DNA of 64,000 nt, from the NCBI GenBank assembly GCA_963807915.1, contig CAWEDO010000001.1, forward strand, positions 205,561 through 269,560, in the 5' to 3' direction. The stretch is from an uncultured Chloroflexia bacterium. GTDB taxonomy: Bacteria > Chloroflexota > Limnocylindria > QHBO01. The notes under the pieces are model-generated. The model searched no databases. It saw only the letters and a program-made list of their open reading frames with translations, and was not told where the DNA came from. Each line of letters starts with the position of its first letter. The first letter of the stretch is position 1. A program made the translations under genes and the position numbers. This document shows, in pieces, positions 2,530 through 22,855 of the stretch.

Positions 2530-3543
2530 CTACTCAACGCGGCGCTCCGACCGGTCGCCAAACCAGCCGAGCACGTCGTCGTCGTCGGCGCGTCGCCGTC
2601 GCATGACATCCCGACGCCGAACCCGCAGCCGCCCCATGTCACCGAGGACGTCGGTGACCGCCAGGAGCGTCCGCTGCTCACGAACCAGGCAGTAGCCAAG
2701 GATCTGCACGTCCCTGCCGACGATCGCGTGCCAGTCACGTCGCCATCCAGCCGCCAGCTCGTTTTTCGCGATCATCCGCCAGCGATTGGCGACCGAGAGT
2801 CGGTTGATTCTGGCCGGCAGTCGTCCCCGCCGACCGGGCGCGACCCGGCGCCGATGGCGCGCCAGTGCCGCCGGGACGTACCGACACCGCCACCCGAGGA
2901 GCTGTGCGCGCCACGCCAGATCGACATCCTCGCGGTAGGCGAAGAAGGACTCGTCCAGGAACTCGCCACGGAAAGCGGTGTCCTCGAGCATGCTCCGCCG
3001 ATAGACCGCTGCAGCGCCGGAGGCGCCGAAGACGTCGGCCGGAGCAGGATCCCGGCCCGCGGCCGCGAGCTCGCTCGACCGATCGAGGACCCTGCGGTTT
3101 CGAAGCGCGACCATTCCGGTCGAGTCCAGCACGTCGTCAGGCAGCTCTTCCAGCGGCCCACCGTCCAGTGAATCATCCCGGAACCTGAGGAGCCGTCCGG
3201 AGACGGCACCGATGGTGGCGTCTGCCTCCATCGCCTCGACGGATTGCTCGAGGAAGGCAGGCGCCAACCGGCAGTCTGGGTTGAGGAGGATGTGGACATC
3301 CGCCGGCTCGAGAGCCATGACCAGGTTGTGAGCCGCGGCGAAGCCAACGTTCGTGAGCGAGCGTTCGAATCGGGCGTCTGGCATGGCCTTCCGGGCCAGA
3401 TCAGGCCCGTTATCCGACGATGCGTTGTCGAGCACTACCAGTGCGTCGGGCGGGCGGGTCTGAGCGTCAACGGCGGATAGGCACGCGCCGATGTCCTGCG
3501 CGCTCTCGTGGAGCACGATCCCCAAGGTGACCCGCAGGCTCAT
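2530..3543 (-). CDS. Glycosyltransferase family 2
   Basis: LDNASSD, NVGFAAAHN, LLNPDC, FFAYREDVDLAWR; start set at MSLRVTLG, overlapping the upstream gene stop. Confidence 0.85.
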   Translation of the reverse strand: MSLRVTLGIVLHESAQDIGACLSAVDAQTRPPDALVVLDNASSDNGPDLARKAMPDARFERSLTNVGFAAAHNLVMALEPADVHILLNPDCRLAPAFLEQSVEAMEADATIGAVSGRLLRFRDDSLDGGPLEELPDDVLDSTGMVALRNRRVLDRSSELAAAGRDPAPADVFGASGAAAVYRRSMLEDTAFRGEFLDESFFAYREDVDLAWRAQLLGWRCRYVPAALARHRRRVAPGRRGRLPARINRLSVANRWRMIAKNELAAGWRRDWHAIVGRDVQILGYCLVREQRTLLAVTDVLGDMGRLRVRRRDVMRRRRADDDDVLGWFGDRSERRVE

Positions 3544-4703
3544 GGCCGCCCTCGCCCAGCAGCGCCGGACCAAGCGTTCATGGCGGCGATTGCCGTTGCG
3601 GCGCGAGCCGACCATTGGTTGTCGGCCGCGAAGGCGAGCCTGTTGGCGCGTCCCGTCGCCAGCTCGCCACCGACAGCTCGCCGCGCAGCTGCGACGAATG
3701 CCTCCGTATCAGTGCAGACCTCCGCGAGCCCAGCCGGCCAGCCGTTGGCCGGAGGGATCGGGGTCGAGATGACCGGCGTGCCGGCGGCAAGCGCGTCCCA
3801 GGCCTTCATTGCGTCCTGCGACAGGGTGTACTGGTCGACGTGGTGCGGAACCAGAAGGGCCGTGGCTGCCCCGATCATCGCGCGGGCCGCCTCCGGTTCT
3901 ACCCGGCCCGGGAGCCGGACATTGGCGCGGGCCGCCAGCGCCGACCAGCCCGCGGGCACGCGCTCGACCGGTCCGGCGATGGTGAGCGTGATGTCGGGAA
4001 GCGCGGCAGCGACTGCGTTGGCGATTCCTGTGTCGAAGCGCTCGTGGATGCGACCCACATAGACGAGGCCGGCGACCTGCCTATCGCCCGTGGGTGGCTC
4101 CAGCTCGAGTGGAGGGCAGGCGTTTGGGAGCAGGCGAACGTCTGGAGCGCCGAGCTGTCGCAGGCGGTCCTGCATCGCCCGTGTGTTGGTGAAAATGAGA
4201 TCAGCTCCATTCGCGGCGGCGCGATACCCGTCTGCCACGGCCCGCAGCCGGCGTTCGCCGCGGACAAGGGGGGAGAGGTCCCATGCGTCGTAGGCGTCCA
4301 CCACCACATGCCAGGCGGGCTGACCGCGCTTCCAGTCGACGACGGCTGGGACCGATTTCGGATCGGCAACCCAGACGATGACCCCCCCTGCAGCCCGACG
4401 GGCGGTGGCGCCGAGGACCCCCGTGAGGAACCATCGCTCGAGCCCGCCGAACGGCCAGGGATGCTCGATGACGACGGCGCCGCTCGCGATCTGGTCGATC
4501 CATCCGGCCAGCCCTCGGCCGAACGTCGGTCGCGCTCGTCCTGCGCGTCTGGCGAACGCGGATGGACGCAGCCGGTTGATCACGATCACGTTGTCGAAAA
4601 CGCCCGCCGCGATGAACGCCGAGAGGAGCTGCGCGGGACGGTTGGGCAGGCCCGCAGCCCGCGCCGGATGCGGCGAAACGAAGATGAGGGTCGGGAGGCT
4701 CAC
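3540..4703 (-). CDS. GT-B glycosyltransferase (TuaH-like)
   Basis: LLPNAC, VYVGRIHERFD, KAWDALAAGTPVISTP; in a run of GT genes. Confidence 0.7.
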   Translation of the reverse strand: MSLPTLIFVSPHPARAAGLPNRPAQLLSAFIAAGVFDNVIVINRLRPSAFARRAGRARPTFGRGLAGWIDQIASGAVVIEHPWPFGGLERWFLTGVLGATARRAAGGVIVWVADPKSVPAVVDWKRGQPAWHVVVDAYDAWDLSPLVRGERRLRAVADGYRAAANGADLIFTNTRAMQDRLRQLGAPDVRLLPNACPPLELEPPTGDRQVAGLVYVGRIHERFDTGIANAVAAALPDITLTIAGPVERVPAGWSALAARANVRLPGRVEPEAARAMIGAATALLVPHHVDQYTLSQDAMKAWDALAAGTPVISTPIPPANGWPAGLAEVCTDTEAFVAAARRAVGGELATGRANRLAFAADNQWSARAATAIAAMNAWSGAAGRGRP

Positions 4704-4754
4704 CTCAGCGCATGTCCGTCGGCCCGGTGACCTTCGATGACCCAGGCGTGCGCC

Positions 4755-6083
4755 TCACGGGGCTCGGTTGGTGACGACCGGTATCGGATCGGGGCTCCCG
4801 AGCGACCAGAGGTCAAATCCGAGATCCGCCATCTGTGCCGGGTCGAGAAGACGCCGACCGTCTACGACGACGGGGCGTGCCATCGCCCTGTGGGCTGCGG
4901 CCCAATCGACATTCTGATACGCCGGCCACTCCGTCGTGATGACCGCCACGTCTGCTCCTCGCAATGCCTCTAGTGGCGTTGCGGCCAGGGAAAGTCCAGG
5001 GAGCGCCAGCGCCGCATTCGCAGAGGCTTCCGGGTCATGGGCCACGACATCCGCCCCGGCCTCGGCCAGGAGCCTAACCACGTTCATCGCTGGCGACGAG
5101 CGGATGTCGTCCGTGCCCGCCTTGAATGCGAGCCCGAGTACGGCGATACGCCGTCCCTCCAGGCCTGACGCCGCCGCCGCGACACGCTCGACGAACCGCC
5201 GCTGGTGACTGGCGTTGGCCTCGGAGGCAGCCGACGTGACATGCATCGGGAGGCCGACCTGTTCGCCGGCCGCCGCGATCGTGCGGAGCTCCTTCGGAAG
5301 GCAGCTTCCACCGAAGCCGAACGATGGACGGAGGTACGTCAATCCGATGCGTGGGTCGCTGCCGATGCCACCCATCACGACATCCACGTCGGCACCGTAG
5401 CGCTCGCACAGCCCGGCCAGCTCGTTCGTGAAGGACAGCTTGAGTGCGAGGAAAGCGTTCGCACCGTTCTTGATGATCTCCGCTTCGGCAACACCCACGA
5501 TGAGGGTCGGGATGCCCGGCGGCACGAGGGCCTCAACCACGGCGTCCAGCCTGTCGGGATCAGCGTCCGGGAAGCGGCCCACCACCGCTCGCGACGGCGA
5601 TCGGAAGTCCGCCAGGGCCGTCCCCTGGCGCAGGAACTCGGGGTTCGTGAAGGTCCGGGCGCTCGGGACACCCGCCTCGTTGACCAGCGCCTGGGTCGTG
5701 CCCACCGGGAGGGTGCTCCGGATGACGAGCGTCGCGCCGGACGCCACGATCGGCGCGACATCGACGAGCGCTGACCGTAGCTGGGTCAGGTCGCTCACGC
5801 CACTGTCGTCGATAGGCGTGCCCACGCAGACGAGGACGAGGTCAGGCGTCTCGACCGGCGGCGCGGCAAGGATCTCGAGCCGGCCCTCGCTCAATGCCGC
5901 GTCAAAGGCGGCCTGAAGGCCCTCCTCATGCAGGGGTATCCGTCCCGTCCGGAGGGCGTTCAGGCGCTGCTGCCCCTTCTCGACCAGTCGGATCAGGTTG
6001 CCGGGCGCGGCGAGCCCGGCGGCGGTGACGAGACCGACGTAGCCAGCCCCGATGATGGCGATCGTGCGCTGAGGTGGGGTCAT
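4755..6083 (-). CDS. ugd: UDP-glucose/GDP-mannose dehydrogenase family
   Basis: IIGAGYVGLV Rossmann motif, CVGTP, NPEFLRQG, AEIIKNGANAFLALKLSF, catalytic GFGGSCLPKE, GLAFKAGTDDIR. Confidence 0.9.
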   Translation of the reverse strand: MTPPQRTIAIIGAGYVGLVTAAGLAAPGNLIRLVEKGQQRLNALRTGRIPLHEEGLQAAFDAALSEGRLEILAAPPVETPDLVLVCVGTPIDDSGVSDLTQLRSALVDVAPIVASGATLVIRSTLPVGTTQALVNEAGVPSARTFTNPEFLRQGTALADFRSPSRAVVGRFPDADPDRLDAVVEALVPPGIPTLIVGVAEAEIIKNGANAFLALKLSFTNELAGLCERYGADVDVVMGGIGSDPRIGLTYLRPSFGFGGSCLPKELRTIAAAGEQVGLPMHVTSAASEANASHQRRFVERVAAAASGLEGRRIAVLGLAFKAGTDDIRSSPAMNVVRLLAEAGADVVAHDPEASANAALALPGLSLAATPLEALRGADVAVITTEWPAYQNVDWAAAHRAMARPVVVDGRRLLDPAQMADLGFDLWSLGSPDPIPVVTNRAP

Positions 6084-6151
6084 GTGGCGGAAGCGTAGCA
6101 GCCCGTCGGCGGGTGTTAGGCTTCGGCCATGCTTGCTCGTCGCATGCCGCG

Positions 6152-6700
6152 ATGAGGATTCTGCCCACCCGCCTGGCGGGGCTGATCCTGATCGAACCGC
6201 AGGTGTTCGCCGATGGGCGCGGATTCCTGTTCGAATCCTTCCGACGCGAGCCCTACTGGGCCGCGGGAATCGATGTCGACTTCGTGCAGGACAACCACTC
6301 GCGCTCCCTCCGCGGCACCATCAGGGCGCTGCATTTTCAGGCTGACCCAGGGCAGCCGAAGCTGGTTCGTGTGGCCCGCGGCCGTGCGTGGGACGTGGCC
6401 CTCGACATCCGGCGCAGCTCCCCGACGTTCGGGCAATGGGAGTCGTTCGAGCTCGACGACGAGCGGAATCTCCAGCTCTACATCCCGATCGGGTTCGCCC
6501 ACGGCTTCTGCGCCACGAGCGACGTGGCGGACTTCGTCTACAAGATCGGGAGCTACTACGACCCGCTGACAGAGCGCGGAATCGCCTGGGACGACTCCGA
6601 CCTCGGGATCCCCTGGCCGGCCGACCAGCCGATCGTCTCCGAGCGCGACCGCGGTAACCCCACGCTCGCCCAGATCCGCGAAGAGCTGCCCGCGTGGTAG
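6152..6700 (+). CDS. rfbC: dTDP-4-dehydrorhamnose 3,5-epimerase
   Basis: FADGRGFLFE, VQDNHSRS..GTIRALHFQ, LYIPIGFAHGF, GIAWDDSDLGIPWP; ATG at 6152. Confidence 0.95.
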   Translation: MRILPTRLAGLILIEPQVFADGRGFLFESFRREPYWAAGIDVDFVQDNHSRSLRGTIRALHFQADPGQPKLVRVARGRAWDVALDIRRSSPTFGQWESFELDDERNLQLYIPIGFAHGFCATSDVADFVYKIGSYYDPLTERGIAWDDSDLGIPWPADQPIVSERDRGNPTLAQIREELPAW

Positions 6701-6709
6701 GCGCCTGCG

Positions 6710-7999
6710 TCAGGCCGTCGACGCCCGTCCATCTCGCCGGCCGAATGCGCCCATGACGCGCCGGTAGACCGGCTCACCGAAGGCGGCCGCTCCGAGGATC
6801 GCGTAGGCGATGTATGGGAAGAGGCTGGCTACCACGATGCCGCTGATGGTTGCGTTCGCCATGTGGACCAGCGCGTACGCGTACAGCGACCACGCCGCCG
6901 CCGTCCTGCGCCGCCGGGCATAGAGGTAGAGCGAGGTCAGGAAGACGCCGATGAGGAGCGGCACGATCACCCAACCAGCCGGGCCGAAGTTGGCATATGC
7001 CTCGCCAAGCATCGACGGCACCGTCCCGCCGCCGGCGTACTCCTGCTCGAGCGCGGCCTTGAGATCCTGGTCGAACGTGCTCTGCCTGCCGGGCAGAATG
7101 GTGATGATGGGCTGAAGGTACGTGTAGCCGAGCTGCCATGGGATCAGGTCCGGGATCGCGCCCAGCGTGGCGGCGAAGTTCTGCACCGGCACCACCAGGT
7201 AGTTCAGCACACCCTTCAGGATCAGCCCACCGAACTCGCCGCTCGCAACTGCATAGGCGATGTCGGGATCGCGCCAGGTGACCGGAGTTCGGCTGAGCCG
7301 ATACCCTCCGATCGCCCCCGCCAGCCCTACCAGGAGGAGCACGAGCAGCCCGAGGAGAGCGATGCCTGTCGCCCGCAGCCGATACAGGCCGGCGCCGAGC
7401 ATCGCCGCCAAGATGGTCGTCTCGATTGCCGTGAAGGCAGGAGCTCGATTGGCGGTGAGGATCTGGAGCATCGCCACGACCATCATCAGGATTGCGACCA
7501 TCAGCCCCGGCTGGACTCGGCGTTGCGCCCCGGCCTGACCCGCCAACAGCCAAAGGCCGGGGATTGCGAGCAGCGACAGAACACGCAGGGCCGCGCCGCC
7601 CTTCGCTGCCGCAAGGACGCGCGCGTCCTCCACGGACTCCATGAAGAGCGGGATCCCGCCGATCGCCACAAGGTATGCGATCGACGCCAGGATCCCCACC
7701 GCGATCAGGGCCAACGCGCCTCTGGCGATCACGCGCTCGAAGTCCCGGCCATCCTCTCCGCCGACATCGCTGCGAATAGGGCGCCACGCGAGGGAGACAC
7801 CGACCAGATACGCGGCCAGGCCGACGACGGCCGCGAGGCCGACGACCACCGCGCGATCCCCGATGCGGGATCCATGCAGAACGGCTCCGAGTCCGTACGC
7901 CAGGGTGAACGCCAACGGAAAGGCGAAGACAGGCGAGACAATCGCAAACCCGCGCTCCGCCCAGAGGTCCCGCCACGCTGCCGCAAGGCGTCCCCTCAC
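6710..7999 (-). CDS. O-antigen/repeat-unit polymerase (Wzy-like)
   Basis: About 10 hydrophobic segments with a large loop, TVPSMLGEAYANFG motif; polysaccharide locus. Confidence 0.7.
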   Translation of the reverse strand: MRGRLAAAWRDLWAERGFAIVSPVFAFPLAFTLAYGLGAVLHGSRIGDRAVVVGLAAVVGLAAYLVGVSLAWRPIRSDVGGEDGRDFERVIARGALALIAVGILASIAYLVAIGGIPLFMESVEDARVLAAAKGGAALRVLSLLAIPGLWLLAGQAGAQRRVQPGLMVAILMMVVAMLQILTANRAPAFTAIETTILAAMLGAGLYRLRATGIALLGLLVLLLVGLAGAIGGYRLSRTPVTWRDPDIAYAVASGEFGGLILKGVLNYLVVPVQNFAATLGAIPDLIPWQLGYTYLQPIITILPGRQSTFDQDLKAALEQEYAGGGTVPSMLGEAYANFGPAGWVIVPLLIGVFLTSLYLYARRRRTAAAWSLYAYALVHMANATISGIVVASLFPYIAYAILGAAAFGEPVYRRVMGAFGRRDGRASTA

Positions 8000-8505
8000 G
8001 ATCGTGGCTCGAGGGAAACCGGATGACAGCTATGCAAACCGATGGACGACGCGTGCGTGCCAGCCGCGTCCCAGTGCGCGACCGATGCCTCAAACGCCGC
8101 GTGGAATGCGTTGACATCCCTTGCCGCGGATGCTGCGACGGCGCGAACTTGCGCATCCGCCGTTGCACCGAGCTCATCGAACCAGGCTGTCACCGCCTCG
8201 CGATCGGCCGGCAGCGGCTCCAGCACGATCCCACGCAGCTGCACGAGCTCGGTGGAGACGACGCCCGCCAGGCCGGCGACTGCGGTGCCGTTCGCGACGA
8301 GGTTCCCATCGGTGACATGCGCAGTGAGCTGTGCGACGAGACCGCGAATGGCCTTGGCATTCGCCAAGCAGATAGCCCGTGCCTCTTCCCGGAAGGTCGG
8401 AGTGGGCGATGGGGTAGGGGGCTCGCCAGAACCCATTCCCGTGGGCAGGATGCCGCACCCGGGCAGCAGCGTGAGCATCACGAGCGCGACGCCGGCCCGG
8501 GTCAT
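7996..8505 (-). CDS. Putative lipoprotein, helical, two Cys
   Basis: Signal with lipobox LPG-C, Pro/Thr linker, amphipathic helices; start set at MTRAG. Confidence 0.55.
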   Translation of the reverse strand: MTRAGVALVMLTLLPGCGILPTGMGSGEPPTPSPTPTFREEARAICLANAKAIRGLVAQLTAHVTDGNLVANGTAVAGLAGVVSTELVQLRGIVLEPLPADREAVTAWFDELGATADAQVRAVAASAARDVNAFHAAFEASVAHWDAAGTHASSIGLHSCHPVSLEPRS

Positions 8506-8593
8506 CGAGGGTGTTCGCCCCGACGCGCCGTCATCTCTGTCGTCCAACCCCTCTCTTGGAGGACTTAACCGCCAAGGCCGCTCGCGGAGACTC

Positions 8594-9049
8594 TCACTCG
8601 CCGGGCGAAGGTGTGGATTGGTCGAAGCCGAGGGCTTGTCGGTACGCTCCGGCGAGGCTTGACGCGTCGTCCACGACACCGACGCTGATCAGCTGCTCCA
8701 TCGCAATGGACACGTCGCCCTGGATGCCGTACGGATCCGCGGAGAGCGCCTGCACGACGAAGTCGGCCTGGCTGCCCGCGGCACCAGGCACCTGCCGAAC
8801 AATCGCGCCGTCTCGCAATCGCAGCTGATCGGGTCCGCGCTGAACCACCTCTCCGACGAAGACCTGGCCGTTGACGAGTTGGATCTCATGCAGGTCGCCT
8901 TCGGCGAGGACACCGCCGAGAGGATCGATCAACAGGATGGCACCGACCCGTACGCCAATCAAGGCCCCCACGACGATCAGGACCAGGGCGCCCGCAATCA
9001 GCGCAGCACGTCGGGGGTTCGGCAGCTTGATCGTCAGCGATCGGGCCAA
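8594..9049 (-). CDS. Single-pass membrane hypothetical protein with a small beta-barrel (Sm-like) domain
   Basis: N-terminal TM followed by IQLVNGQVFVGEV...PYGIQGDVSIAMEQLISV. Confidence 0.6.
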   Translation of the reverse strand: MARSLTIKLPNPRRAALIAGALVLIVVGALIGVRVGAILLIDPLGGVLAEGDLHEIQLVNGQVFVGEVVQRGPDQLRLRDGAIVRQVPGAAGSQADFVVQALSADPYGIQGDVSIAMEQLISVGVVDDASSLAGAYRQALGFDQSTPSPGE

Positions 9050-9158
9050 GATCGGATCCTCCTCATCTGCGAGGTGCGTGGCGCGCCGTAGTATCGCGCC
9101 GCCGGTTCGCCGGTGTCTCGTTGCGCCACCATCATGCCGGCCAACTGTTGAGGCCGGC

Positions 9159-9202
9159 CGAGCTTTTGCGGCGATCTGCCGCGTACACTCGGACCGCGAT
9201 GG
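9159..9202 (+). repeat. 44-bp direct repeat, copy 1
   Basis: cgagcttttgcggcgatctgccgcgtacactcggaccgcgatgg; 41/44 identical to 12946-12989, last 27 bp identical. Confidence 0.9.
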
Positions 9203-9311
9203 ATCGGATTCGTGGCATCACACCGCCCACCGCGGCCACCGAGTTGTGTCGTGCCGGGCGGCCTTCACCGGCGCTTGAGGCTGGCCTGCCCTCGGCTAGG
9301 CTTTCTCGACG

Positions 9312-11363
9312 ATGACCAATCGGACGTTGGGGCGGGCTGCCCTCATTGGCCTGGCGGTCGGAGCCCTCCTCGTCTTGCCGGCCGGCCCACTGCCGGATCG
9401 TGCCGACGGTGCCCGCAGGACCCCCACCGGCTCGCGGCCCGAGGTTGCGACGTTGCGGCTGGCGAGCTCGAAGGTCTTCGACCTTCGGCGACTGCCCCAG
9501 CTTCGGGACTCGACCGAGGGTGCCGATCGCGACCTGCAACCCGAGCGGCATGCTCCACGAACCCGACTCGTCGGCGGACAGGCCGCGGCGGAAGTCGGAT
9601 CGGGCAGCGCCCTGGGGCCGCTCGCCGCCGCTCCGTCGCCGACGAGGAGCTTCGAAGGCCTCTACAACAGCGAGAGCTGCACCGGCGGGCCGTGCGGGCA
9701 GGGCCACCCGCCGGATCCGAACGGTGACGTCGGTCCGACCCACTACATCGAGACGATCAACACAGCGATCGCGATCTTCGACAAGGCCACCGGAACGCGG
9801 ATCGTGGGGGTCACGTTCAACAGCTTCATGAGCCAGGGGACGTACGGGAACCTGTGCGACACGGAGAACTTCGGGGACGCGGTCGTGCTCTATGACACGT
9901 TCCGCGACCGCTGGGTGATCACCGACTTCGCCTTCCAGCTCGACGGGTCCGGCAACGTTGTCAGCGCGCCGGGTTCATACCAGTGCATCGCCGTCTCTCA
10001 GTCCGGCGATCCGGTGAGCGGGGGCTGGAACTTCTACTCCCTCCACCTGACCGATGGCCTCCAGGATTACCCCAAGCTCGGGATCTGGCCGGACGGCCTC
10101 TACATGTCGGCAAACATGTTCGACTTCGCAATCACCGGTAGCTTCCAGAACGTCCGAGTCTGGGCGATGGACCTCAAGGCGATGGAAGCGGGCGACCCGA
10201 CCGTCGGGGCAGTTGCATTCAACGCGCCCAGCCGGACGGGGCCATGCTCGGTCTTCACGCTCCTGCCGAGCAACGCCCGGGCGCAGACCGGCACGCCGCC
10301 ACCCGGCCGTCCGAACTACTTCGCTTCGGTCTGGTGCTACACCGGGCTCGTCCGCGTCTGGCAGCTCCACGTCGACTGGAGCGACGCCGGCGGCGCGACC
10401 TTCACGGGTCCCACCGACTCGAGCACCGGCTCGTTGTGGGGGACACCGCCGTCCGTCGCGCCGTCGCGTGACGGCAACGACCTCGACACGCTAGCGATGC
10501 GGCTGATGGCCCAGAACCAGTACACGAACATCGGCGGGGTCGAGTCGCTGTGGCAGAGTCACACCGTCCAGGGCAGTTCGGCCAGCCAGGCCGCCGTGCG
10601 CTGGTATCAGGTCCCGGTCACCGGCGGCTCCGTCGCGAGCGCAATTCAGGCGGCAACCTGGAACCCCGACGCCTCGAACCGTTTCATGCCGAGCCTGGCG
10701 GTCGACCGCCTCGGTGACGCGGCGATCGGGTACAGCGCCTCGAGCGCATCGCTGTACCCGGCGATCCGCTACGCAGGACGGCTCTTCAGCGATCCCGCCG
10801 GTGTGTTCGGCCAGACTGAGCAATCGCTGATCGAGGGCGGCGGCAGCCAAATCGGCGACTGCGGCGGGTCGCCGTGCGAGCGGTGGGGTGACTACACGGC
10901 AATGACGCTCGATCCCGACGGATGCACCTTCTGGTACGTCAACGAGTACTACCCTGCGCTCGGCCTCGACTACCACACGCGCATCGGCGCATTCGCGTTC
11001 GCGCCATGCACCCCGCTCGAGCCGACGCTGCATGGGGCGGATCTCGATGGCGCCGCGCGGCGGACCGGGCTGCTCACCTGGCGGGCAGCGGTGACCGTGA
11101 CGGTCCGCGACTCGAGCGGGTTGCCAGTCAGCTTCGCGACCGTGTTCGGCTCCTGGAGCGGCGGCTACTCGGGTTCGGGTTCGTGCACCACGGATGCGAC
11201 CGGCTCGTGCTTCCTCGCCACGGCGGGTGTCCCGAACGCAGCGAGCTCCGTGACCTTCCTGATCGGGTCGATCAACCACTCGACGCTCACGTACAACGCC
11301 ACCGAGAACGAGGACCCTGACGCGGACTCTGATGGAACCGTGATCACGGTTCCGCGATTCTAG
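9312..11363 (+). CDS. Large secreted Cys-rich hypothetical protein (probable beta-propeller plus C-terminal Ig-like domain)
   Basis: Signal peptide; PPDPNGDVGPTHY, DYPKLGIW, RWGDY motifs; C-terminal beta-rich module of about 100 aa. Confidence 0.75.
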   Translation: MTNRTLGRAALIGLAVGALLVLPAGPLPDRADGARRTPTGSRPEVATLRLASSKVFDLRRLPQLRDSTEGADRDLQPERHAPRTRLVGGQAAAEVGSGSALGPLAAAPSPTRSFEGLYNSESCTGGPCGQGHPPDPNGDVGPTHYIETINTAIAIFDKATGTRIVGVTFNSFMSQGTYGNLCDTENFGDAVVLYDTFRDRWVITDFAFQLDGSGNVVSAPGSYQCIAVSQSGDPVSGGWNFYSLHLTDGLQDYPKLGIWPDGLYMSANMFDFAITGSFQNVRVWAMDLKAMEAGDPTVGAVAFNAPSRTGPCSVFTLLPSNARAQTGTPPPGRPNYFASVWCYTGLVRVWQLHVDWSDAGGATFTGPTDSSTGSLWGTPPSVAPSRDGNDLDTLAMRLMAQNQYTNIGGVESLWQSHTVQGSSASQAAVRWYQVPVTGGSVASAIQAATWNPDASNRFMPSLAVDRLGDAAIGYSASSASLYPAIRYAGRLFSDPAGVFGQTEQSLIEGGGSQIGDCGGSPCERWGDYTAMTLDPDGCTFWYVNEYYPALGLDYHTRIGAFAFAPCTPLEPTLHGADLDGAARRTGLLTWRAAVTVTVRDSSGLPVSFATVFGSWSGGYSGSGSCTTDATGSCFLATAGVPNAASSVTFLIGSINHSTLTYNATENEDPDADSDGTVITVPRF

Positions 11364-11372
11364 AGCGACCGT

Positions 11373-12749
11373 TCAGCGCGACCGCCGCGGCTGGAGCGTG
11401 GGGGTTCGGTGTCGCCAGTCCGCGCCCTCGCTCGGAGGTCGACCGAAGAGCTCCGGATGAAGGTACGTCCCCCGCTCGGACGTCGGCTTCGCCTCCTCGA
11501 CCACGACCCGGTTGGCGTCAGCCCAGCGGTCGCGGCGGATGCCCGTCAACTGCCAACTCACTTCCTGGCCCGGGTTGCCGCCCGCGATCGTGAACGACCC
11601 GTCGCGCACGGTTGCCTTGACGAACAGCGGGCTGAACGCAGCGTGGGGCGTGAGCTGATAACGGAAGTCGCGGTTGAGGGCCTCGAAGTAGCCGGGAAGC
11701 TCGACCGTTGCCTCGCCCGAGGCGTCCAGCCGGGCGACGCCGTCGTAGACGTTCTTCATGTCCGGGCTCTCGACGAACGAGTGGCTCAAGTATCGTCGGG
11801 TCGGGTCGAGAGGATGATCGATCTTGAAGCTCCCGCCGCCCTTCGAGAGGGTCCCACTGACCGACAGGTCGCCCTGGACGTGCGCCCGCCCTTGCGACCA
11901 CACCCCATAGCCGGAGCCGCTCGTTGTCGTCGCGTACAGCCCGTAGTTCACGCCGGAGGAGTTGGCCTCCGCATAGACCGCCCGGCCGGTGGCGCCGTAC
12001 GCCAACGCGTAGACGCCGAAGTTCGTTCCAGCGGTGTTGTAGGCCGCCCCGTATACACCCGCGCCCGGCTGTGTCTCGCTCTCCCCGACGACGCCGTGGT
12101 AGGCCTCGGCTCCGGTGTACTCGGCGTAGCCCCATACCCCGTCACCGCGGGTCGCGAACCCCTGCACCCCGGTGGGAATGCTGCCACCGCCGACCGCCCC
12201 GGTCGCACGACCCTTGACGCCGGCTCCCTCCGAGCCGGCTGACTCCCCGTAGATCGCGATGGCCGCAGTGCCCGTGCTCGTCGTGATCGCCCGAATCGCG
12301 TTGGCCGCCGCGCCGGCGGTTGTCGCGACGAGGCCGTGGTTGTTGCCACCGGAGGCGCGCATCGCGCCGGCGGTCCCGGCAGCACCGTTGTTCTGGCCGA
12401 AGACCCCGTACGTTGCGCCGGTGCCCGTGACACCGCTGATTCCGGTCCCATTGTTGGCGGTAAAGAATCCCGCGATGGAGCCGGCCCCAACGGCGGATCC
12501 GCGGAGCGCCGTGCCGGTTCCGTTCTGGGTCACCAGCAGCGCGGTACCGCTGCTGTTCGTGGTGAGGGTCGTGTTCGACGTCCCGGCGTTGTTGGAGGTA
12601 TTGCCGATGAACAACGGATCGCCGGCTGCGGCCTTCGCGTCCTGGGGTCGGCCGAGAGCAGAGATGACGAGACCGGCCAGGCCACCGAGTCCGGCGGCGA
12701 TGAACGAGCGCCGACTGCGCGGCTGCGTGGTTGGATTCGCGGCGGCCAT
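11373..12749 (-). CDS. Tat-exported Gly-rich repeat (beta-helix-like) protein A with C-terminal DHPLDP module
   Basis: AAGGAGG SD before ATG 12749; SRRSFI twin-arginine signal; GV(Y/F/W)G repeats; GGGSFKIDHPLDP...HSFVESP...FRYQLT tail. Confidence 0.8.
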   Translation of the reverse strand: MAAANPTTQPRSRRSFIAAGLGGLAGLVISALGRPQDAKAAAGDPLFIGNTSNNAGTSNTTLTTNSSGTALLVTQNGTGTALRGSAVGAGSIAGFFTANNGTGISGVTGTGATYGVFGQNNGAAGTAGAMRASGGNNHGLVATTAGAAANAIRAITTSTGTAAIAIYGESAGSEGAGVKGRATGAVGGGSIPTGVQGFATRGDGVWGYAEYTGAEAYHGVVGESETQPGAGVYGAAYNTAGTNFGVYALAYGATGRAVYAEANSSGVNYGLYATTTSGSGYGVWSQGRAHVQGDLSVSGTLSKGGGSFKIDHPLDPTRRYLSHSFVESPDMKNVYDGVARLDASGEATVELPGYFEALNRDFRYQLTPHAAFSPLFVKATVRDGSFTIAGGNPGQEVSWQLTGIRRDRWADANRVVVEEAKPTSERGTYLHPELFGRPPSEGADWRHRTPTLQPRRSR

Positions 12750-12945
12750 GCGGAACCTCCTTGGATGGGCCTGTCGTGTGGACGGGCTGCTGCGGGAACG
12801 TGCCTGTGTTCCCATCGGCGCCCTCGGCCCTGCGCTGGCCCGCCGTCCCGGCGACATGAAGCAGCTCGCTAGGCGATTGTGGCGCCCGCGTCAAGGTGCC
12901 TTCGCAGCCCGTCTTGTCGCAGCCCGCCTCCGAACACCAGGCGAT

Positions 12946-12989
12946 CGAGCTTTGGCGGTGACCTGCCGCGTACACTCGGACCGCGATGG
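12946..12989 (+). repeat. 44-bp direct repeat, copy 2 (upstream of rfbD)
   Basis: cgagctttggcggtgacctgccgcgtacactcggaccgcgatgg; contains a TACACT -10-like hexamer. Confidence 0.9.
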
Positions 12990-13032
12990 TTCGACCAGAT
13001 CTCGGCACGCCGCCCGGGGCCAGGGAAGACTG

Positions 13033-13893
13033 ATGTCGCGGCGCGTGGCCATCACCGGAGCCGGAGGGCAGCTCGGCCACGAGCTGGTGACCGCATTTCG
13101 CGGCGTGGGCGACGAGGTGCTCTCGCTGATGCGGCCCGAGTTCGACATCACCCGGTCCGGTGACCTTGAGCGCATGAGCGCCTGGCGGCCGGACGTCGTG
13201 ATCAATGCGGCCGCATGGACCGATGTCGATGGCTGCGTCCGCGATCCGGCGCGCGCCATGGCGATCAACGGTACCGCTGCCGGCGAGGTTGGAAAGGCGG
13301 CGGCGGACGCCGGCGCCCTGACCGTGCAGATCAGCACGAACGAGGTCTTTGATGGCAGCCTCGATCGTCCGTACACGGAGGATGACAGCCCGAATCCGAT
13401 CAATCCGTATGGCGCCTCGAAGCTGCTCGGCGAGCGGCTGGTGGCAGATTCCAGCGGGCGCCACCTGATCGTGCGGACCGCGTGGCTCTTCAGCACGCGG
13501 GGATCGAACTTCATAACGAAAATCCTGGCGGCGGCTGAGAGGGCCTCTGCTGCAGGCGACCCATTGCGGATCGTCGGTGACGAATGGGGGAATCCGACGT
13601 CGACGACATGGCTGGCAGCCGCGGTCAGAGGACTCGCCGATGCGGCGTTGAGCGATCGCACGATCGAGGGCGTCTGGCATCGCGCCGGCCAGCCGCCTGC
13701 GACGCGCATGGAGTGGGCGCGGCGGATCCTGCGCGGGAACAATGTGTCGATTACCGAGATCTCGCTCGATGAATATCCACGGGGCAGTCGTGTCCCACGA
13801 CGTGCGGTGCTGACCACCCGGCGATTGCTGGCTCTTCCCGGTGGCAATTGGCAGGGGGAGACGGACGCCGTCGTCGCAAGACTGCGGGCCTAG
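13033..13893 (+). CDS. rfbD: dTDP-4-dehydrorhamnose reductase
   Basis: ITGAGGQLG, INAAAWTDVDGC, ISTNEVFDG, YGASK catalytic motif, RTAWLF, DEWGNPT. Confidence 0.92.
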   Translation: MSRRVAITGAGGQLGHELVTAFRGVGDEVLSLMRPEFDITRSGDLERMSAWRPDVVINAAAWTDVDGCVRDPARAMAINGTAAGEVGKAAADAGALTVQISTNEVFDGSLDRPYTEDDSPNPINPYGASKLLGERLVADSSGRHLIVRTAWLFSTRGSNFITKILAAAERASAAGDPLRIVGDEWGNPTSTTWLAAAVRGLADAALSDRTIEGVWHRAGQPPATRMEWARRILRGNNVSITEISLDEYPRGSRVPRRAVLTTRRLLALPGGNWQGETDAVVARLRA

Positions 13894-14142
13894 GCGGCGA
13901 GCGCCAGGCGCGGGGAGGGGTTCCCCACCGGGCCCGTCCATCGCTGCTGGGTCGTGGCGAACTGGACCGGGTAGGAGGACCGGGGTCGCCAGCACCCTGC
14001 CGGCCCCCGCGGCGGCGGCCGCTATCCCCCTGGCCACGATACCGGTGACGTGGCTGCCTGCCGGTGTGACAATCACCGCCTGATAGCGGCTCTCGCGCCG
14101 CCTGGCGCCGCCGCGTTGCTTCTTCTGGAAAGGAGACCGCCG

Positions 14143-15500
14143 ATGCCCGCGCCGATCCCTGCTGAATCCAACCCCGAGCGGAGCGCCGCTGCCTCACCCC
14201 GCAGCCGACGCGCCCTGCTGGCGGGGATGTTCGGCGGGCTGGCCGCCTGGGCCGCGGCCGCGGCTGCCAAGGTCAGCCCGGTGGAGGCTGCCGCCGGCAG
14301 CTCGCTCATCATCGGCTCGACCGCCAACAACGCCGGGACGTCGAACACGACCCTGACCACGGCCAGTAGTGGCACCGGCCTGCTCATCACCCAGAACGGG
14401 TCCGGCACGGCCCTGCGCGGCTCAGCGGTGGGCGCGGGCTCGATCGCTGGCTTCTTCACCGCCAACAATGGCACCGGCATCAGCGGGGTGACCGGCAACG
14501 CGAACAGCTACGGCGTCTACGGCGCCAATGACGGTGCCGCCGGCACCGGTGCGGCGATCCGTGCCAACGGCGGCAACAACAACGCAATCGTCGCGACCAC
14601 GGCCAACTCGGCCACGGTTGTCTATGCGTCCACGCAGAGCGGCGTTGCCATCTATGGCCTCTCCGGCACCGGCACCGCGGTCTATGGCTACTCCAACACG
14701 CACTCGGGCGTTAGCGGCGGCTCGTCTTCGGCGCCTCGACAACGGGGGCGGGTGTCTACGGTCGCTCTACTACGAACGCCGGGGTCCTCGGCCAGTCAGA
14801 CACGCATTTCGGGGTATCCGCGATCGGCAACGGCGGCACCAAAGATCATGCTGCATTGCGCAGCGACAACACCAACACCAGCAACGGCATGGCCGCCTAC
14901 CTGACCAACAACAGCAGCTTCGCCACCGCCCACCTCTACAACGCCGGTTCGGGTCAGGTGCTGTGGCTGCAGAACGGGGGCACCGACGCGGCTGGGACGG
15001 GCGGCGGCGACTTCATCAACTGCCGCAACAAGGACCAGTCCGATACCCAGTTTCGGGTCGCCTCCGACGGCAGCGCCTACAGCGACGGGACCTTCAATGG
15101 CGGCGGTGCCGACTTCGCCGAGCTGCTGCCCGCCGCCGAGCCCAGCGAGCCGGGGGACGTGTTGGCGGTGCAGCCCGATGGCCGGCTGGCACGCTCCAGC
15201 GACGCCCGCTCAAGCGCCGTGCTCGGGGTACAGTCCACCAAGCCGGGCTTCGTGGGAGGGGCCATGCGGGCCGGCGGGGCGCCCGACCGGATCCCACTGG
15301 CGGTGGTGGGAATCGTACCCGTCAAGGCCAGCGCCGAGAACGGCGCGATCCGCGCCGGTGATCGGCTGGTCAGCGCAGCGCTCCCTGGCCACGCCATGCG
15401 CGCGGACCGGCATCCGGAGGTGGGCACCGTCATCGGCAAAGCACTCGCCGACCTGGCGGCCGGTACCGGCACCCTGGAGATGATGGTCATGCTGCAATAG
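14143..15500 (+). CDS. Tat-exported Gly-rich repeat protein B with C-terminal peptidase-G2-like intramolecular chaperone domain; frameshifted near 14724
   Basis: AAGGAG SD; SRRALL signal; 10-aa GVxGxS repeats continue across a frame change; tail GADFAE...PGDVL...GVQSTKPG...VGIVPVK...IRAGDRLV...GTVIGKAL. Confidence 0.75.
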
Positions 15501-18676: not shown

Positions 18677-20278
18677 ATGTCCCGCATCCTGGTCGCCGAG
18701 CCGGTCGCGGAGGACGGGCTGGAGATCCTGACCGGCGCCCATGAGACCTCCGTCCGCCTGAACCTGCCGCGCGCGGCGCTCCTCGAGGCGCTGCGCGAGG
18801 ACGGTGGCTGGGACGCGCTCGTCGTCCGCTCGCAGACGCGGGTCGACGAGGAGCTGCTGGCCATGGCGGCACCACGCCTGAGCGTGGTCGGCGTCGCGAG
18901 CGTCGGGACCGACCGCGTCGACATTCCGGCGGCCACGCGCGGCGGGGTGATGGTCGTGAACGCCCCCACCGGCAACACGATCGCGGCTGCCGAGCACACC
19001 ATGGCGCTCATGCTGTCGCTGTTGCGGCAGATTCCCGGGGCGGACGCATCGGTCCGGCGCGGCGAGTGGGAGCGGGGGCGGTTCATCGGCGCCGAGCTCC
19101 GGCACCGGACGCTGGGGATCATCGGCCTCGGGAAGATCGGCAAGGCGGTGGCGCGCAGGGCGGCAGCCTTCGAGATGCGGGTCCTGGCTCACGACCCGTT
19201 CCTGACGGCCGAGCAGGCCGACGAGAACGCGGCCAGGCTGGTGGGCCTCCCCGAGCTCCTGCTTCGGTCGGACGTCATCACCGTCCACGTCCCCCTGGTC
19301 GCCCAGACCAGGGGGATGATCGGGGAGGCACAGCTCGGCGCCATGAAGCCCGGCGCCGTCCTCCTCAATGTCGCGCGAGGCGGCCTGGTCGACGAGGAAG
19401 CGCTGGCCCGGGCACTGCGGGACGGCCGCCTGGCGGGTGCCGCCGTGGACGTCTACTCGGCTGAGCCGATGGCGGCCGACAACCCCCTGCGCGACGCCCC
19501 CAACACCATCCTGACGCCGCACCTCGGGGCGTCCACCTCGGAGGCTCAGGGTCGCGTCGGCGTGGAGATGGCGGAGCAGGTGGTCATGGCGCTCTCGGGG
19601 ATCACGCCGCCGTACGCGCTGAATGCGCCATCCGTCGCGCGGGAGGTCGCGCCGAGCCTGCATCCCTACGTCGAGCTCGGGCGACGCCTCGCCATCCTGG
19701 CCCGCCAGCTGGCCCCCGCCCCGATCGGCGCCGTGAAGCTCACGTATGCGGGCGAGATCTCAGCCTGGGATGGCGGACCGATTCGCACCGCGGTGCTGGC
19801 CGGGCTGCTCGAGGCGGTCACCGACCAGCGCGTGAACGCCGTCAACGCGGATGTCGTGGCGCGAGAGCGCGGCCTCATCGTCACGGAGGAACGCACGGAC
19901 GCGGCCGACGCCTACGCCTCGCTCGTCATCCTCGAGGCGGGGGAGGGCGGCGATCGCGTTGCGCTGTCGGGCTCGTCCGCGCACGGACGACCTCACCTCG
20001 CGAGCGTGGGTGGCTTTGGCATCGACGCCGAGCTGGCGGGGACGATCCTCGTCACCCGGCACGCGGACCAGCCGGGCATTGTCGGCGCGGTCGGCAGCAC
20101 GCTTGCCGCCGCCGGGGTCAACATCAGCTCGCTCGAGCTGTCACGCCTCTCGGCAGCGGGCGACGCGATGATGTTCGTGAGCGTCGACCAGGCCATCCCC
20201 GATGACGTCCTGGCAGGGTTGAACGGCGTGCCGGGCATGATCCACGCGCAGGTGGTGGAGCTCCCGGCGCTGCCGTAG
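18677..20278 (+). CDS. serA: D-3-phosphoglycerate dehydrogenase with C-terminal ACT domain
   Basis: NAPTGNTIAAAEH, GIIGLGKIG, NVARGGLVDE, TPHLGAST.EAQ, DQPGIVG...NISSL. Confidence 0.93.
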   Translation: MSRILVAEPVAEDGLEILTGAHETSVRLNLPRAALLEALREDGGWDALVVRSQTRVDEELLAMAAPRLSVVGVASVGTDRVDIPAATRGGVMVVNAPTGNTIAAAEHTMALMLSLLRQIPGADASVRRGEWERGRFIGAELRHRTLGIIGLGKIGKAVARRAAAFEMRVLAHDPFLTAEQADENAARLVGLPELLLRSDVITVHVPLVAQTRGMIGEAQLGAMKPGAVLLNVARGGLVDEEALARALRDGRLAGAAVDVYSAEPMAADNPLRDAPNTILTPHLGASTSEAQGRVGVEMAEQVVMALSGITPPYALNAPSVAREVAPSLHPYVELGRRLAILARQLAPAPIGAVKLTYAGEISAWDGGPIRTAVLAGLLEAVTDQRVNAVNADVVARERGLIVTEERTDAADAYASLVILEAGEGGDRVALSGSSAHGRPHLASVGGFGIDAELAGTILVTRHADQPGIVGAVGSTLAAAGVNISSLELSRLSAAGDAMMFVSVDQAIPDDVLAGLNGVPGMIHAQVVELPALP

Positions 20279-20300
20279 GTCGCGGCCTATCATCCGCGGC

Positions 20301-21254
20301 GTGACCCGCAGGCCCTTCGCGTCGTCGGCCGACCTGGCCGAGAAGACCGCCACCCTGGAGGAGCTCGCCCCGGGCGTCTATGCCTACACCGCGCAGGGCG
20401 ACCCCAACGTCGGCTGCATCATCGGGACCGATGCGGTGCTCGCCATCGAGGCGCGTGCCACCCCGCTGATGGCCAGGCGCTGGATCGACGTCATCCGGAC
20501 CCTCACCGATCTGCCGTTCGGCGACCTGGTCCTGACCCACTACCACGCGGTGCGCGTGCTAGGGGCATCCGCGTTCGATGCGCGTCGCATCGTGGCGCAC
20601 CGTCAGACCGCGGCCTGGATCGAGGAGCGAGGGATGCAGGACTGGGCGAGCGAGGCCGGCCGCATGCCCCGCCTCTTCGAGGGGGCGGAGACGATCCCCG
20701 GGCTGACCCGGCCCACGTACACCTTCGACGACGCGATGACGATCGACCTGGGCAACCGGTTGGTGGAGCTGCGCCACCTCGGGCGGGGCCACACGGCCGG
20801 CGACATCGTGGTCTGGCTGCCGGAGGAGCGGATCTGCTTCGGCGGCGACCTGGTCGAGGCGCAGGCCGCGCCCTACATGGGCGACGGGCATATCGCGGAC
20901 TGGCGAGGCGGGACGCTCGACGCCGTCGCGGCGCTGGGTGCGCAACAGCTGGTCGGCGGCCGCGGCCCGGTCGTGCGGGACGCCGCCGTGGCGCAGGCGA
21001 TCGAGGACACCCGCGCCTTCCTGTCGGCCGTCCTCGACGGGACCCGTGCGGTCAGGGATGGCGGCGGGACCCCGGCCGAGGCGTATCGGTCCACCCGCGC
21101 GGCGCTCGAGCCGCGCTACGGCAGCTTCCCGATCTTCGAGCACACCATGCCGTTCAACGTGCAGCGCGCCTGGGATGAGCTCGACGGCATCGACCACCCG
21201 CGGATCTGGACCGTGGAACGCGATCGGGCCGTGTGGGACGCGCTGACGGGCTGA
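20301..21254 (+). CDS. MBL-fold metallo-hydrolase-like protein
   Basis: GDPNVG, THYHAVRVLGASAF, GRGHTAGD, FGGDLVE. Confidence 0.8.
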   Translation: MTRRPFASSADLAEKTATLEELAPGVYAYTAQGDPNVGCIIGTDAVLAIEARATPLMARRWIDVIRTLTDLPFGDLVLTHYHAVRVLGASAFDARRIVAHRQTAAWIEERGMQDWASEAGRMPRLFEGAETIPGLTRPTYTFDDAMTIDLGNRLVELRHLGRGHTAGDIVVWLPEERICFGGDLVEAQAAPYMGDGHIADWRGGTLDAVAALGAQQLVGGRGPVVRDAAVAQAIEDTRAFLSAVLDGTRAVRDGGGTPAEAYRSTRAALEPRYGSFPIFEHTMPFNVQRAWDELDGIDHPRIWTVERDRAVWDALTG

Positions 21255-22855
21255 TGGATGCCCAGGTCGCCGTCGTCGGCGCGGGGCCGGTTGGCATGAC
21301 GCTGGCCGGGCGACTCGCCCAGCGCGGGGTCAGCGTTCTCCTGCTCGAGCAGCACCCGCGCCATACCGGGGAGGGCAGCAAGGCGCTCTGCATGCAGCGC
21401 GAGACGCTCGAGATCTGGGCGCGGCTGGGGATCGGTGAGGCGGTGGCTGCGCGCGGGGTGCAATGGGACCTCGGCCGCACCTACTTCCGCGGCAGGGAGC
21501 TGTTCCAGGTGCGGCTTCCCAGCGCCAGCCGGGATCACTTCCCGCCATTCGTGAACATCAACCAGACCGAGGTCGAGGCGATGCTCCTCGAGCGCCTCTC
21601 CGAGCTGCCGGAGGTCGACCTGCGCTGGAGCCACCGCCTGATCGGTTTCGCCCAGGACCCGGATGGAGTGACGATCCGCTGCGAGACGCCGGCGGGTGAG
21701 CACGAGCTGCGCGTCGCGTACCTCGTCGGCGCCGATGGCGCCCATTCCGGGGTCCGCCACGCCAGTGGGATGGGGTTTCCCGGCCACTCGTTCCCGGACC
21801 TCTTCCTCATCTGCGACATCCACGCAAAGCTCCCCTTTCCGCGCGAGCGGCGCTTCTTCTTTGACCCGCCCTGGAATCCGGGACGCCAGGTGCTGATCCA
21901 CCCCCAGCCCGATGACGCCTGGCGCATCGACTGGCAGGTCCCGCCGGGCACCGACCTGGACGCCGAACGGGCGAACGGCGACCTCGACCGCCGCGTGCGG
22001 GCGGTGATCGGCACGTCGACCGACTACGAGGTGCTGTGGGCCACGCCATACCGCTTCCATCAGCGCCTGGTCGAGCGATTCCGGGTGGGCCGATTGTTCC
22101 TGGCCGGCGACGCGGCGCACGTGGTCAGCCCGTTCGGGGCACGGGGTCTCAACTCCGGTGTGGCCGATGCCGAGAACCTTGCCTGGAAGCTGGCCGCGAC
22201 CCTGTTCGGGAACGCCTCGGAGGACCTCCTGGAGAGCTACCACGCCGAGCGACGAGCGGCCGCCGTCGAGAACCTTGCCGTCAGCGACGCGAGCATGCGC
22301 TTCATGGTCCCGCGCGGACGGCTGCAGCGCCTGCTGCGCAACGCGATCCTGCGGGGCTCCCTGCGCCTGCCGCGCTTGCGGCGGCTCGTCAACTCGGGGC
22401 GGTTGGCGCAGCCGTTCAGCTACGCGGACTCGCCGATCGTCGTCGCGGAGTCGCGCGAAGAGCGCATCCCCACCGTCGGCGGCGTCGCGCCGGACGCGCC
22501 ATGCCGCCCCCGCGGCGAGGGGAGGGCACGCCGGCTGCGGGAGCTGTTCGGGTCGGGCTTCATCGCCCTGCTGGTCGGCGGGTCCGGCCGTGAGGCAGCC
22601 TCGATCGCCGTCCGTGCGTCGCGCCTCGCCTGGCCGGCTCCCTGCCAGATCGTGGCGGTTGGTCCCGACGGACCGCTGGCGGGGGTGACCGTCCTCGCCG
22701 ACGACGACGGCGAGATCCGCCGAGCGTATGGCGCGGCCGGTCCATCGGCCTTCCTGGTTCGGCCCGATGGCCACCTTGCGGCCTGGATCCCGCTGCGGCG
22801 GACCGACTCGGTGGATGCGCTGCCCGGGCTCCAGGCGATCGCCATCGGGGGCTAG
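21254..22855 (+). CDS. FAD-dependent monooxygenase (PheA/MhpA-like aromatic hydroxylase family)
   Basis: VVGAGPVG, GADGAHS, FLAGDAAH..SPFGARGLNSG; TGATG coupling to the upstream gene. Confidence 0.85.
   Translation: MDAQVAVVGAGPVGMTLAGRLAQRGVSVLLLEQHPRHTGEGSKALCMQRETLEIWARLGIGEAVAARGVQWDLGRTYFRGRELFQVRLPSASRDHFPPFVNINQTEVEAMLLERLSELPEVDLRWSHRLIGFAQDPDGVTIRCETPAGEHELRVAYLVGADGAHSGVRHASGMGFPGHSFPDLFLICDIHAKLPFPRERRFFFDPPWNPGRQVLIHPQPDDAWRIDWQVPPGTDLDAERANGDLDRRVRAVIGTSTDYEVLWATPYRFHQRLVERFRVGRLFLAGDAAHVVSPFGARGLNSGVADAENLAWKLAATLFGNASEDLLESYHAERRAAAVENLAVSDASMRFMVPRGRLQRLLRNAILRGSLRLPRLRRLVNSGRLAQPFSYADSPIVVAESREERIPTVGGVAPDAPCRPRGEGRARRLRELFGSGFIALLVGGSGREAASIAVRASRLAWPAPCQIVAVGPDGPLAGVTVLADDDGEIRRAYGAAGPSAFLVRPDGHLAAWIPLRRTDSVDALPGLQAIAIGG

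Follow-up and report, generated by a model that had tools for sequence, protein, structure and literature searches.

Recently, the mosaic adhesive trimer (MAT) fibres of Bdellovibrio bacteriovorus were described as trimeric fibres that begin with a signal peptide and then an N-domain, which is conserved between paralogs and presumed to attach the fibre to the cell, and that end in tips formed either by an autoproteolytic chaperone (S74) or by beta-sandwich or lectin domains in its place (Caulton et al. 2024, PMC10769870). In the appendage protein gp12 of phage phi29, the autochaperone domain D4 is a tandem beta-tulip (Stone et al., 10.1101/216911). Here we analyze two genes, termed A and B, that flank the rhamnose biosynthesis gene rmlD (also called rfbD) in a 64,000-nt stretch of DNA, referred to below as the window, from an uncultured Chloroflexia bacterium (GCA_963807915.1, contig CAWEDO010000001.1, positions 205,561 to 269,560; G+C ~69%), together with a third paralog that lies upstream of the window. 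We consider it likely that A, B and the third paralog descend from the tail fibres of phages, are now encoded by the cell and are secreted as homotrimeric mosaic fibres, and, by analogy of layout, the closest known system is the MAT fibres of B. bacteriovorus. An earlier reading made from the letters of the window, hereafter the sequence-only reading, had presented the pair as a domesticated, modular system of trimeric surface fibres; such a system has a precedent in the MAT fibres, which follow the same logic.

The two systems are alike in being chromosomal, multi-copy and derived from phage tail fibres. In both, a signal is followed by an N-domain conserved among paralogs, a likeness in layout, and in both the tips are module-swapped, some being autoproteolytic chaperones, as predicted for B, and others beta-sandwiches that replace the chaperone. 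The long fibre is trimeric in MAT and, judged from sequence and monomer models, may be of a trimer type here. The two differ in that the A family carries a twin-arginine signal, that the chaperone here is of the G2 (phi29 gp12) type and that of MAT is S74, and that the present proteins have ~450 aa as against the ~630-1030 aa that PMC10769870 states for some of the MAT proteins. Additionally, the host here is a small-genome member of Chloroflexota with no sign of predation, and the present genes are partially associated with polysaccharide loci and with a partner gene encoding a 683-aa protein.

In the build that we propose, a signal peptide, predicted to be of the twin-arginine type in A and B, would be followed by a conserved base module of ~105 aa, which would form the N-terminus of the mature protein and probably anchor the fibre to the cell envelope. 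A Gly-rich shaft of irregular 10-15-aa repeats, most likely an intertwined triple beta-helix, would lead to a C-terminal tip that can be exchanged between fibres. The tip of A would stay on the fibre and would probably be ligand-binding (perhaps glycan-binding) or trimer-capping, and that of B would initiate trimerisation before releasing itself by a cut at GGGA↓DFAE, where the arrow marks the predicted cut. Gene A would have arrived, or have been retained, as a two-gene cassette with the 683-aa protein inside a rhamnose-containing polysaccharide locus. The features of A and B in the window are as follows (Tat, twin-arginine translocation).

11373-12749, minus strand: gene A, 458 aa, an open reading frame with a Shine-Dalgarno sequence; predicted Tat signal, N-module, Gly-rich shaft and beta-sandwich tip
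12627-12749, minus strand: predicted twin-arginine signal of A (SRRSFI, h-region, basic c-region, AKA↓AAG)
12318-12632, minus strand: 105-aa N-module of A, with 82 of 105 residues identical to B 14287-14601
11850-12317, minus strand: shaft of A, ~18 irregular 10-15-aa [GA]-[VIL]-x-[GA]-x-[ST] repeats, read from the sequence
11430-11849, minus strand: C-terminal beta-sandwich tip of A (FKIDHPLDP...), then a conserved YLHPxExGxP tail
14143-14724, plus strand: N-part of gene B in frame 0, with predicted Tat signal (SRRALL), N-module (14287-14601) and first repeats
14722-14726, plus strand: frame change of -1 (one base missing) at GGC TCG TCT TC, from the three-frame translation and the sequence
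14715-15500, plus strand: C-part of gene B in the -1 frame (RRLVFGAS...MVMLQ), with further repeats, a conserved middle region and the putative autochaperone domain
15099-15497, plus strand: beta-tulip, G2-type intramolecular chaperone domain of B, as judged from Foldseek against PDB and BFVD
15111-15122, plus strand: DFAE motif of B, predicted autocleavage and catalytic site (GGGA↓DFAE)

The tips of A and B

The AlphaFold2 monomer model of A has a mean predicted local distance difference test (pLDDT) of 74, and its tip is a beta-sandwich (residues ~308-420) with values mostly above 90. In a Foldseek search of PDB, the best match of this tip was the Pam1 tailspike (7eea, 1.3e-3), and the top matches were C-terminal domains of tailspikes and pyocin fibres. 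Homology to phage proteins was also evident at the sequence level: tblastn matched the tip to the C-terminus of Arthrobacter phage Sonali gp19 (3e-13), to the P-SSM2 'tail fiber protein' PSSM2_295 (7e-11) and to the Mufasa8 gp19 'minor tail protein' (2e-10). These cyanophage and actinophage fibre ends are 33-43% identical to the A tip over 120-133 aa, have in common with it the motif GTLSKxGGSFKIxHP...HSFxExPxM...LNRD...SW..G.R.D and, as in A, occupy the extreme C-terminus directly after the shaft; the phage domain is uncharacterised (no Pfam family; PHROGs of unknown function). The tail of A had been called chaperone-like in the sequence-only reading. It shows no chaperone features and is instead a beta-sandwich homologous to the distal ends of phage tail fibres. 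The two proteins do end in unrelated domains, as claimed, but only that of B is chaperone-like. The A family comprises more than 7,900 homolog clusters, all of them unnamed.

The cellular A-type proteins carry, beyond this domain, an additional conserved tail. The last ~30 residues of A (11373-11470, minus strand) contain the motif RGxYLHPxExGxP, in which Y429, L430, H431, P432 and G436 are nearly invariant, and this tail is not present in the phage homologs of the A tip. It might serve to sort, anchor or process the protein.

The C-terminal part of B was modelled with a mean pLDDT of 84. A Foldseek search of PDB returned beta-tulip capsid decoration proteins (3e-4) and premature phi29 gp12 (3suc, 1e-2, probability 1.0), and the triple beta-helix of HylP was also matched. 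Against BFVD, the model gave 68 matches at or below 1e-3, including a 'Preneck appendage protein' (2e-8, root-mean-square deviation 2.8 A) and a 'Peptidase G2 IMC autoproteolytic cleavage domain' (6e-5). That decoration proteins turn up alongside gp12 in these match lists is explained by D4 of gp12 being itself a tandem beta-tulip; the tail of B has the beta-tulip fold of this domain (MEROPS G2, PF11962), as one or two tulips.

The likeness extends to the predicted cleavage site. Residues 691-695 of gp12 read S-D-F-A-E (phi29 record) and B reads GGGA-D-F-A-E, which places the DFAE of B at gp12 D692-E695. The D and E of the gp12-type S↓D-x-x-E motif are reported in MEROPS as the catalytic residues. 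Within the motif of B, D133, A135 and E136 are invariant in 62 B-family sequences. A hidden Markov model of the B family aligned paaDFAEllpa...GDvlv...vvGvyStkPGfvgg onto gp12 689-747 (TWSDFAEYFES...IIGVISETAGFVLGE) with an E-value of 1.8e-5 for this single target, and a downstream block, GD..v...GV.S..(P/A)GFV, is found in both. The earlier comparison of the B tail with peptidase G2 and the phi29 appendage chaperone therefore stands as regards the beta-tulip fold and the DFAE motif, although the PF11962 model fails to recognise the tail. Both tails had been proposed for comparison with PF11962 and PF13884, and neither protein matched either family; a match to PF13884 (S74) was not found in A or B, and the SDxxxK motif is not present in A or in the C-part of B. 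A search of 50,697 phage records by tblastn with the C-part of B yielded no match. Its 1,324 homolog clusters are all unnamed, one of them coming from Chloroflexus aurantiacus. Unlike gp12, B is a secreted cellular protein by its predicted signal; in such proteins of cells, the present analysis recognises a G2-type autochaperone whose DFAE site is intact.

Gene B had been read as one open reading frame through to its tail, which proved incorrect, as the gene is split by a -1 frame change and the tail lies in the other frame. Frame 0, starting at 14143, is sensible as far as ...YGYSNTHSGVSGGS (~14724) and continues as junk to a stop codon at 14902-14904. The closest intact ortholog (P0121; 434 aa, C-part 83% identical) reads GISGGSFSG across this point, and we conclude from it that one base is missing in GGC TC- GTC TTC. 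Neither a homopolymer nor a slippery heptamer occurs at 14722-14726, and the rest of gene B is undamaged. Programmed -1 frameshifting was considered and set aside because of the lack of a slippery heptamer and because the ortholog is a single open reading frame. The frame change is either that of a very recent pseudogene or an error of consensus or assembly, and we lean towards a real mutation; that B decayed following the arrival of A is speculation.

The shared N-module and the signal peptides

In the N-module, A and B are identical at 240 of 315 nt (76%) in addition to the 82 residues given above, and a run of 31 aa is identical although 17 of its 31 codons differ synonymously, as the sequence-only reading had reported. 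By the Nei-Gojobori method, the dS of the 105-aa module between A and B is 0.76 and dN/dS is 0.21. In a 31-codon window that is offset by two residues and overlaps the identical run by 29 of 31 codons, dS is ~1.7 and dN is near 0. This combination of high dS with low dN/dS indicates an old duplication under purifying selection, as had been supposed. The paralogy of A and B is wider than the module, extending over ~287 aa with 48% identity (E 2e-55).

An exhaustive search of 1.84 billion proteins with the N-module gave only 104 representative clusters, in all of which the module directly follows the signal. Among the tips of these representatives, 29 are of the A type, 16 of the type of the upstream paralog (C-type) and ~18 of a short 'ARLFVRDNGGKTELCV' type, the remainder being others. 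The idea of a modular family with a common N-module and varied C-termini is thus borne out, with at least four kinds of tip; the association of the family with polysaccharide loci is partial, and many of its members lie in tandem arrays far from glycan genes. In the source genome, three copies of the N-module, in A, B and the upstream paralog, occur within 20 kb. The third paralog (452 aa; G000:C1:200298-200606, L003 1417-2775) lies ~5 kb upstream of the window and adjoins a WbaP-like initiating sugar transferase. Its N-module is 54% identical, its signal is not of the twin-arginine type and its C-terminus carries a CTGC motif. The possibility that its tail is a relative of that of B was also considered, but hhalign against the B family was not significant, and it was treated as a third tip type.

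The twin-arginine motifs that had been pointed out are present in both proteins (SRRSFI in A, SRRALL in B), and each is succeeded by an h-region rich in Gly and Ala and by an AxA site; the signals accord with the Tat pattern S/T-R-R-x-F/L-L with a weakly hydrophobic h-region and a basic c-region. An alignment of 70 A sequences shows R13 and R14 to be invariant and has the consensus RSRRSIL...LGRP..A.AAAG. The motif is present in 116 of 120 A-type homologs and in 16 of 120 B-type homologs, most B-type proteins having a Sec-like signal and a different N-domain (AAPLGSGFTYQGQLQ...). Signal type correlates with tip type: proteins of the A type and of the short type nearly always have twin arginines, and those of the third tip type, with the same N-module, mostly lack them and have an R-x-R-F-A N-terminus. 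TatC is encoded in the source genome (215 bits). Use of Tat tracks the A-type lineage, and from its sequence the B protein of the window looks like a B-type tail joined to an A-type N-end.

These distributions bear on the earlier argument that chaperone-assisted folding would account for export by Tat. Since the twin-arginine motif is near-universal in the A type and rare in the B type, Tat is not tied to the chaperone, and the N-module is also found behind other signals. Release of the gp12 chaperone is reportedly ATP-dependent, which cannot apply to most B homologs because their signals are mostly of the Sec type. The near-universal twin arginines of the A type raise the question of whether Tat carries long trimeric fibres. 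We offer as a tentative scheme, and a rather doubtful one, that A-type proteins fold and trimerise in the cytoplasm and are exported by Tat as finished rod-shaped trimers, and that in glycan loci the conserved 683-aa partner docks them at the envelope or takes part in their processing. If true, this would be a route of surface-fibre assembly that has not been described for MAT fibres or phage-derived adhesins.

Fibres and other explanations

The A and B families occur mostly in metagenome bins of Chloroflexota/Limnocylindria, and also in Chloroflexus aurantiacus and Acidobacteriota. Elsewhere, tandem arrays of up to six genes stand beside ordinary cellular genes, and the B-type gene of Chloroflexus sits among housekeeping genes. 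Thus far, thousands of unnamed proteins with the same build, from Chloroflexota and from other soil and freshwater phyla, lie outside the Pfam, NCBIfam and PHROG models, and the present analysis links this unnamed family with the tail fibres of phages as well as with the MAT fibres of Bdellovibrio. It also suggests for the family a function open to test, as fibres for surface recognition, together with a maturation step that can likewise be tested. The surface-fibre interpretation of the sequence-only reading was about half right: the likeness to phage fibres, the modularity and the non-phage glycan context stand, the chaperone of A and the intactness of B do not, the link from chaperone folding to Tat is weakened, and the arrangement around rmlD is specific to the source genome.

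Because both tips are clearly homologous to phage tail proteins, A and B could be taken for what is left in the chromosome of a prophage or tailocin, namely genes for tail fibres that have no cellular role, and the frameshift in B, the patchy distribution of the family and the position of the A cassette between direct repeats would suit such an origin. We regard this as very improbable. The signal peptides are conserved and the twin arginines invariant, thousands of homologs lie on cellular contigs, the module is under strong purifying selection (dN/dS 0.21), and no phage genes were found in the window, as had been stated, or at five other family loci that were looked at. A cellular role might instead be enzymatic, with the proteins secreted as polysaccharide-modifying enzymes, HylP-like thin triple-beta-helix lyases or depolymerases that trim or size the glycan of the locus. 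In favour of this, a Foldseek alignment of the B model with HylP hyaluronate lyases covers 169 columns (E ~5e-3), A-type genes recur within polysaccharide loci, and the A tip is similar to C-terminal domains of tailspikes that act as capsule depolymerases. The HylP match, however, spans the generic extended shaft and not a catalytic site, neither A nor B has a large right-handed beta-helix catalytic domain, and many family members lie in tandem arrays far from glycan genes, so that we consider this role unlikely.

We see somewhat less likelihood still in structural envelope proteins, such as S-layer-like subunits of a coat or sheath that act with the glycan and not as discrete adhesive fibres. 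The surface-glycan context of the locus and the high copy number in some genomes would agree with a coat, as would the partner family of the 683-aa protein, which in other organisms is fused to wall-binding SLH, PASTA and Ig-like domains; yet the family is accessory within the genus, variable tips derived from phage fibres fit recognition better than the formation of a lattice, and Pfam reveals no SLH or other wall-binding domain in A or B. Secreted, phage-derived mosaic fibres remain the explanation that we favour. The analysis shows the homologies and motifs, the modular build, the synteny and the frame change, whereas trimerisation, self-cleavage, export by Tat, a place on the cell surface and a role in adhesion are inferred from them.

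Several observations weigh against that interpretation. Full-length A and the joined B had no match in Pfam, NCBIfam or PHROGs; a profile search of PDB sequences gave no match, and phmmer against PDB sequences gave nothing meaningful. PF11962 is not matched by B, and when Pfam was run on all members of the alignments the sole result was one weak match to PF11962, in 1 of 62 B-family members (E 0.008). The sequence alignment to gp12 scores only 9-10 bits, and the P1 residue of the predicted cleavage site is Ala in B and not Ser as in gp12. The shafts of A and B are modelled as monomers in the form of an extended chain of fair confidence (in A, pLDDT mostly 63-88 with a dip to ~41-43 at residues 173-190) that lacks intrachain secondary structure; this is the look expected of a chain of an intertwined trimer when modelled alone, although it is not proof. 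The N-module is found in 1 of 24 other species of the genus (with 6 copies there), is absent from the remaining 23 and was found in none of 16 genomes that were sampled to represent other genera of the class, which makes the family accessory and patchy; the anchoring role given to the module is a guess. Finally, B is interrupted, and thus in the source genome certain function can be claimed for no more than A and the upstream paralog.

The locus around rmlD and related loci

The polysaccharide locus around A and B contains four glycosyltransferases, a UDP-glucose dehydrogenase, RmlC and a Wzy-like polymerase, in keeping with the surface-glycan setting that the sequence-only reading had described. 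The glycan genes are followed, in order, by the genes for a 151-aa membrane protein and the 683-aa secreted protein (plus strand), A (minus strand), rmlD (plus strand), B (plus strand) and metE. The strong Shine-Dalgarno sequences ascribed to both fibre genes are present, the ATG of A lying 7 nt after GGAGG and the AGGAG of B lying 7 nt upstream of 14143. The neighbouring features are listed here.

8594-9049, minus strand: membrane protein of 151 aa (single-pass) that matches no family; conserved beside rmlD in a relative's contig
9159-9206, plus strand: left copy of a 48-nt direct repeat, 92% identical to 12946-12993, spacing 3787 nt
9312-11363, plus strand: 683-aa secreted protein, convergent partner of gene A
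12946-12993, plus strand: right copy of the 48-nt direct repeat, upstream of rmlD
13033-13893, plus strand: rmlD, dTDP-4-dehydrorhamnose reductase (Pfam PF04321 RmlD_sub_bind, 2.6e-68)

The two 48-nt repeats enclose a 3.8-kb segment that consists of the 683-aa gene and gene A. Synteny was compared through the gene tables of two metagenome contigs. In the contig of the relative with the intact B (P0121), the 151-aa gene, rmlD and B follow one another in order, and neither a 683-aa nor an A-type gene was called between the 151-aa gene and rmlD. The second relative, whose A is 91% identical, has a 683-like gene, A and rmlD, with a methyltransferase-like gene at the place of B. A DNA search of the genus genomes for an 'empty site' beside the 151-aa gene found no syntenic relative. 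Given the repeats and the contig in which no gene was called between the 151-aa gene and rmlD, the 683-aa gene and A behave as an insertion/deletion cassette that duplicates the region upstream of rmlD. Two divergent genes do flank rmlD, as the sequence-only reading had it, but this arrangement is not conserved in the contigs of the relatives; since one of them has B beside rmlD with no A-type gene called between the 151-aa gene and rmlD, and the other has A without B, the pair around rmlD consists of two fibre genes that vary independently of each other and have come together by chance. The locus beside rmlD looks like a site at which fibre genes are swapped in and out in the source genome.

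The convergent pair of a 683-like and an A-type gene recurs in at least three further contigs, in one of them again within a polysaccharide locus. Members of the 683-aa family stand beside A-type genes in loci L004 and L023, and also under the neighbouring NCBI tags P0004/P0340. The 683-aa protein, with ~1,500 homolog clusters, had no match in Pfam, NCBIfam or PDB. In other organisms, the ~520-aa core of this family occurs joined to domains of the PASTA, SLH, Ig-like or CarboxypepD_reg kind.

An array of such genes was seen in another assembly (L017; GCA_003152995.1, PMBR01000089.1), where six genes of A-type size lie within 21 kb (3333-12646 and 20023-21320). Four of these are arranged head-to-tail (426-456 aa), a fifth (478 aa) lies further up, and the last (440 aa) closes the series. 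Among the six is the A-type homolog whose neighbourhood was inspected, and the other five were grouped with it by size. This array adjoins genes for a YD-shell/RHS protein and a polysaccharide deacetylase.

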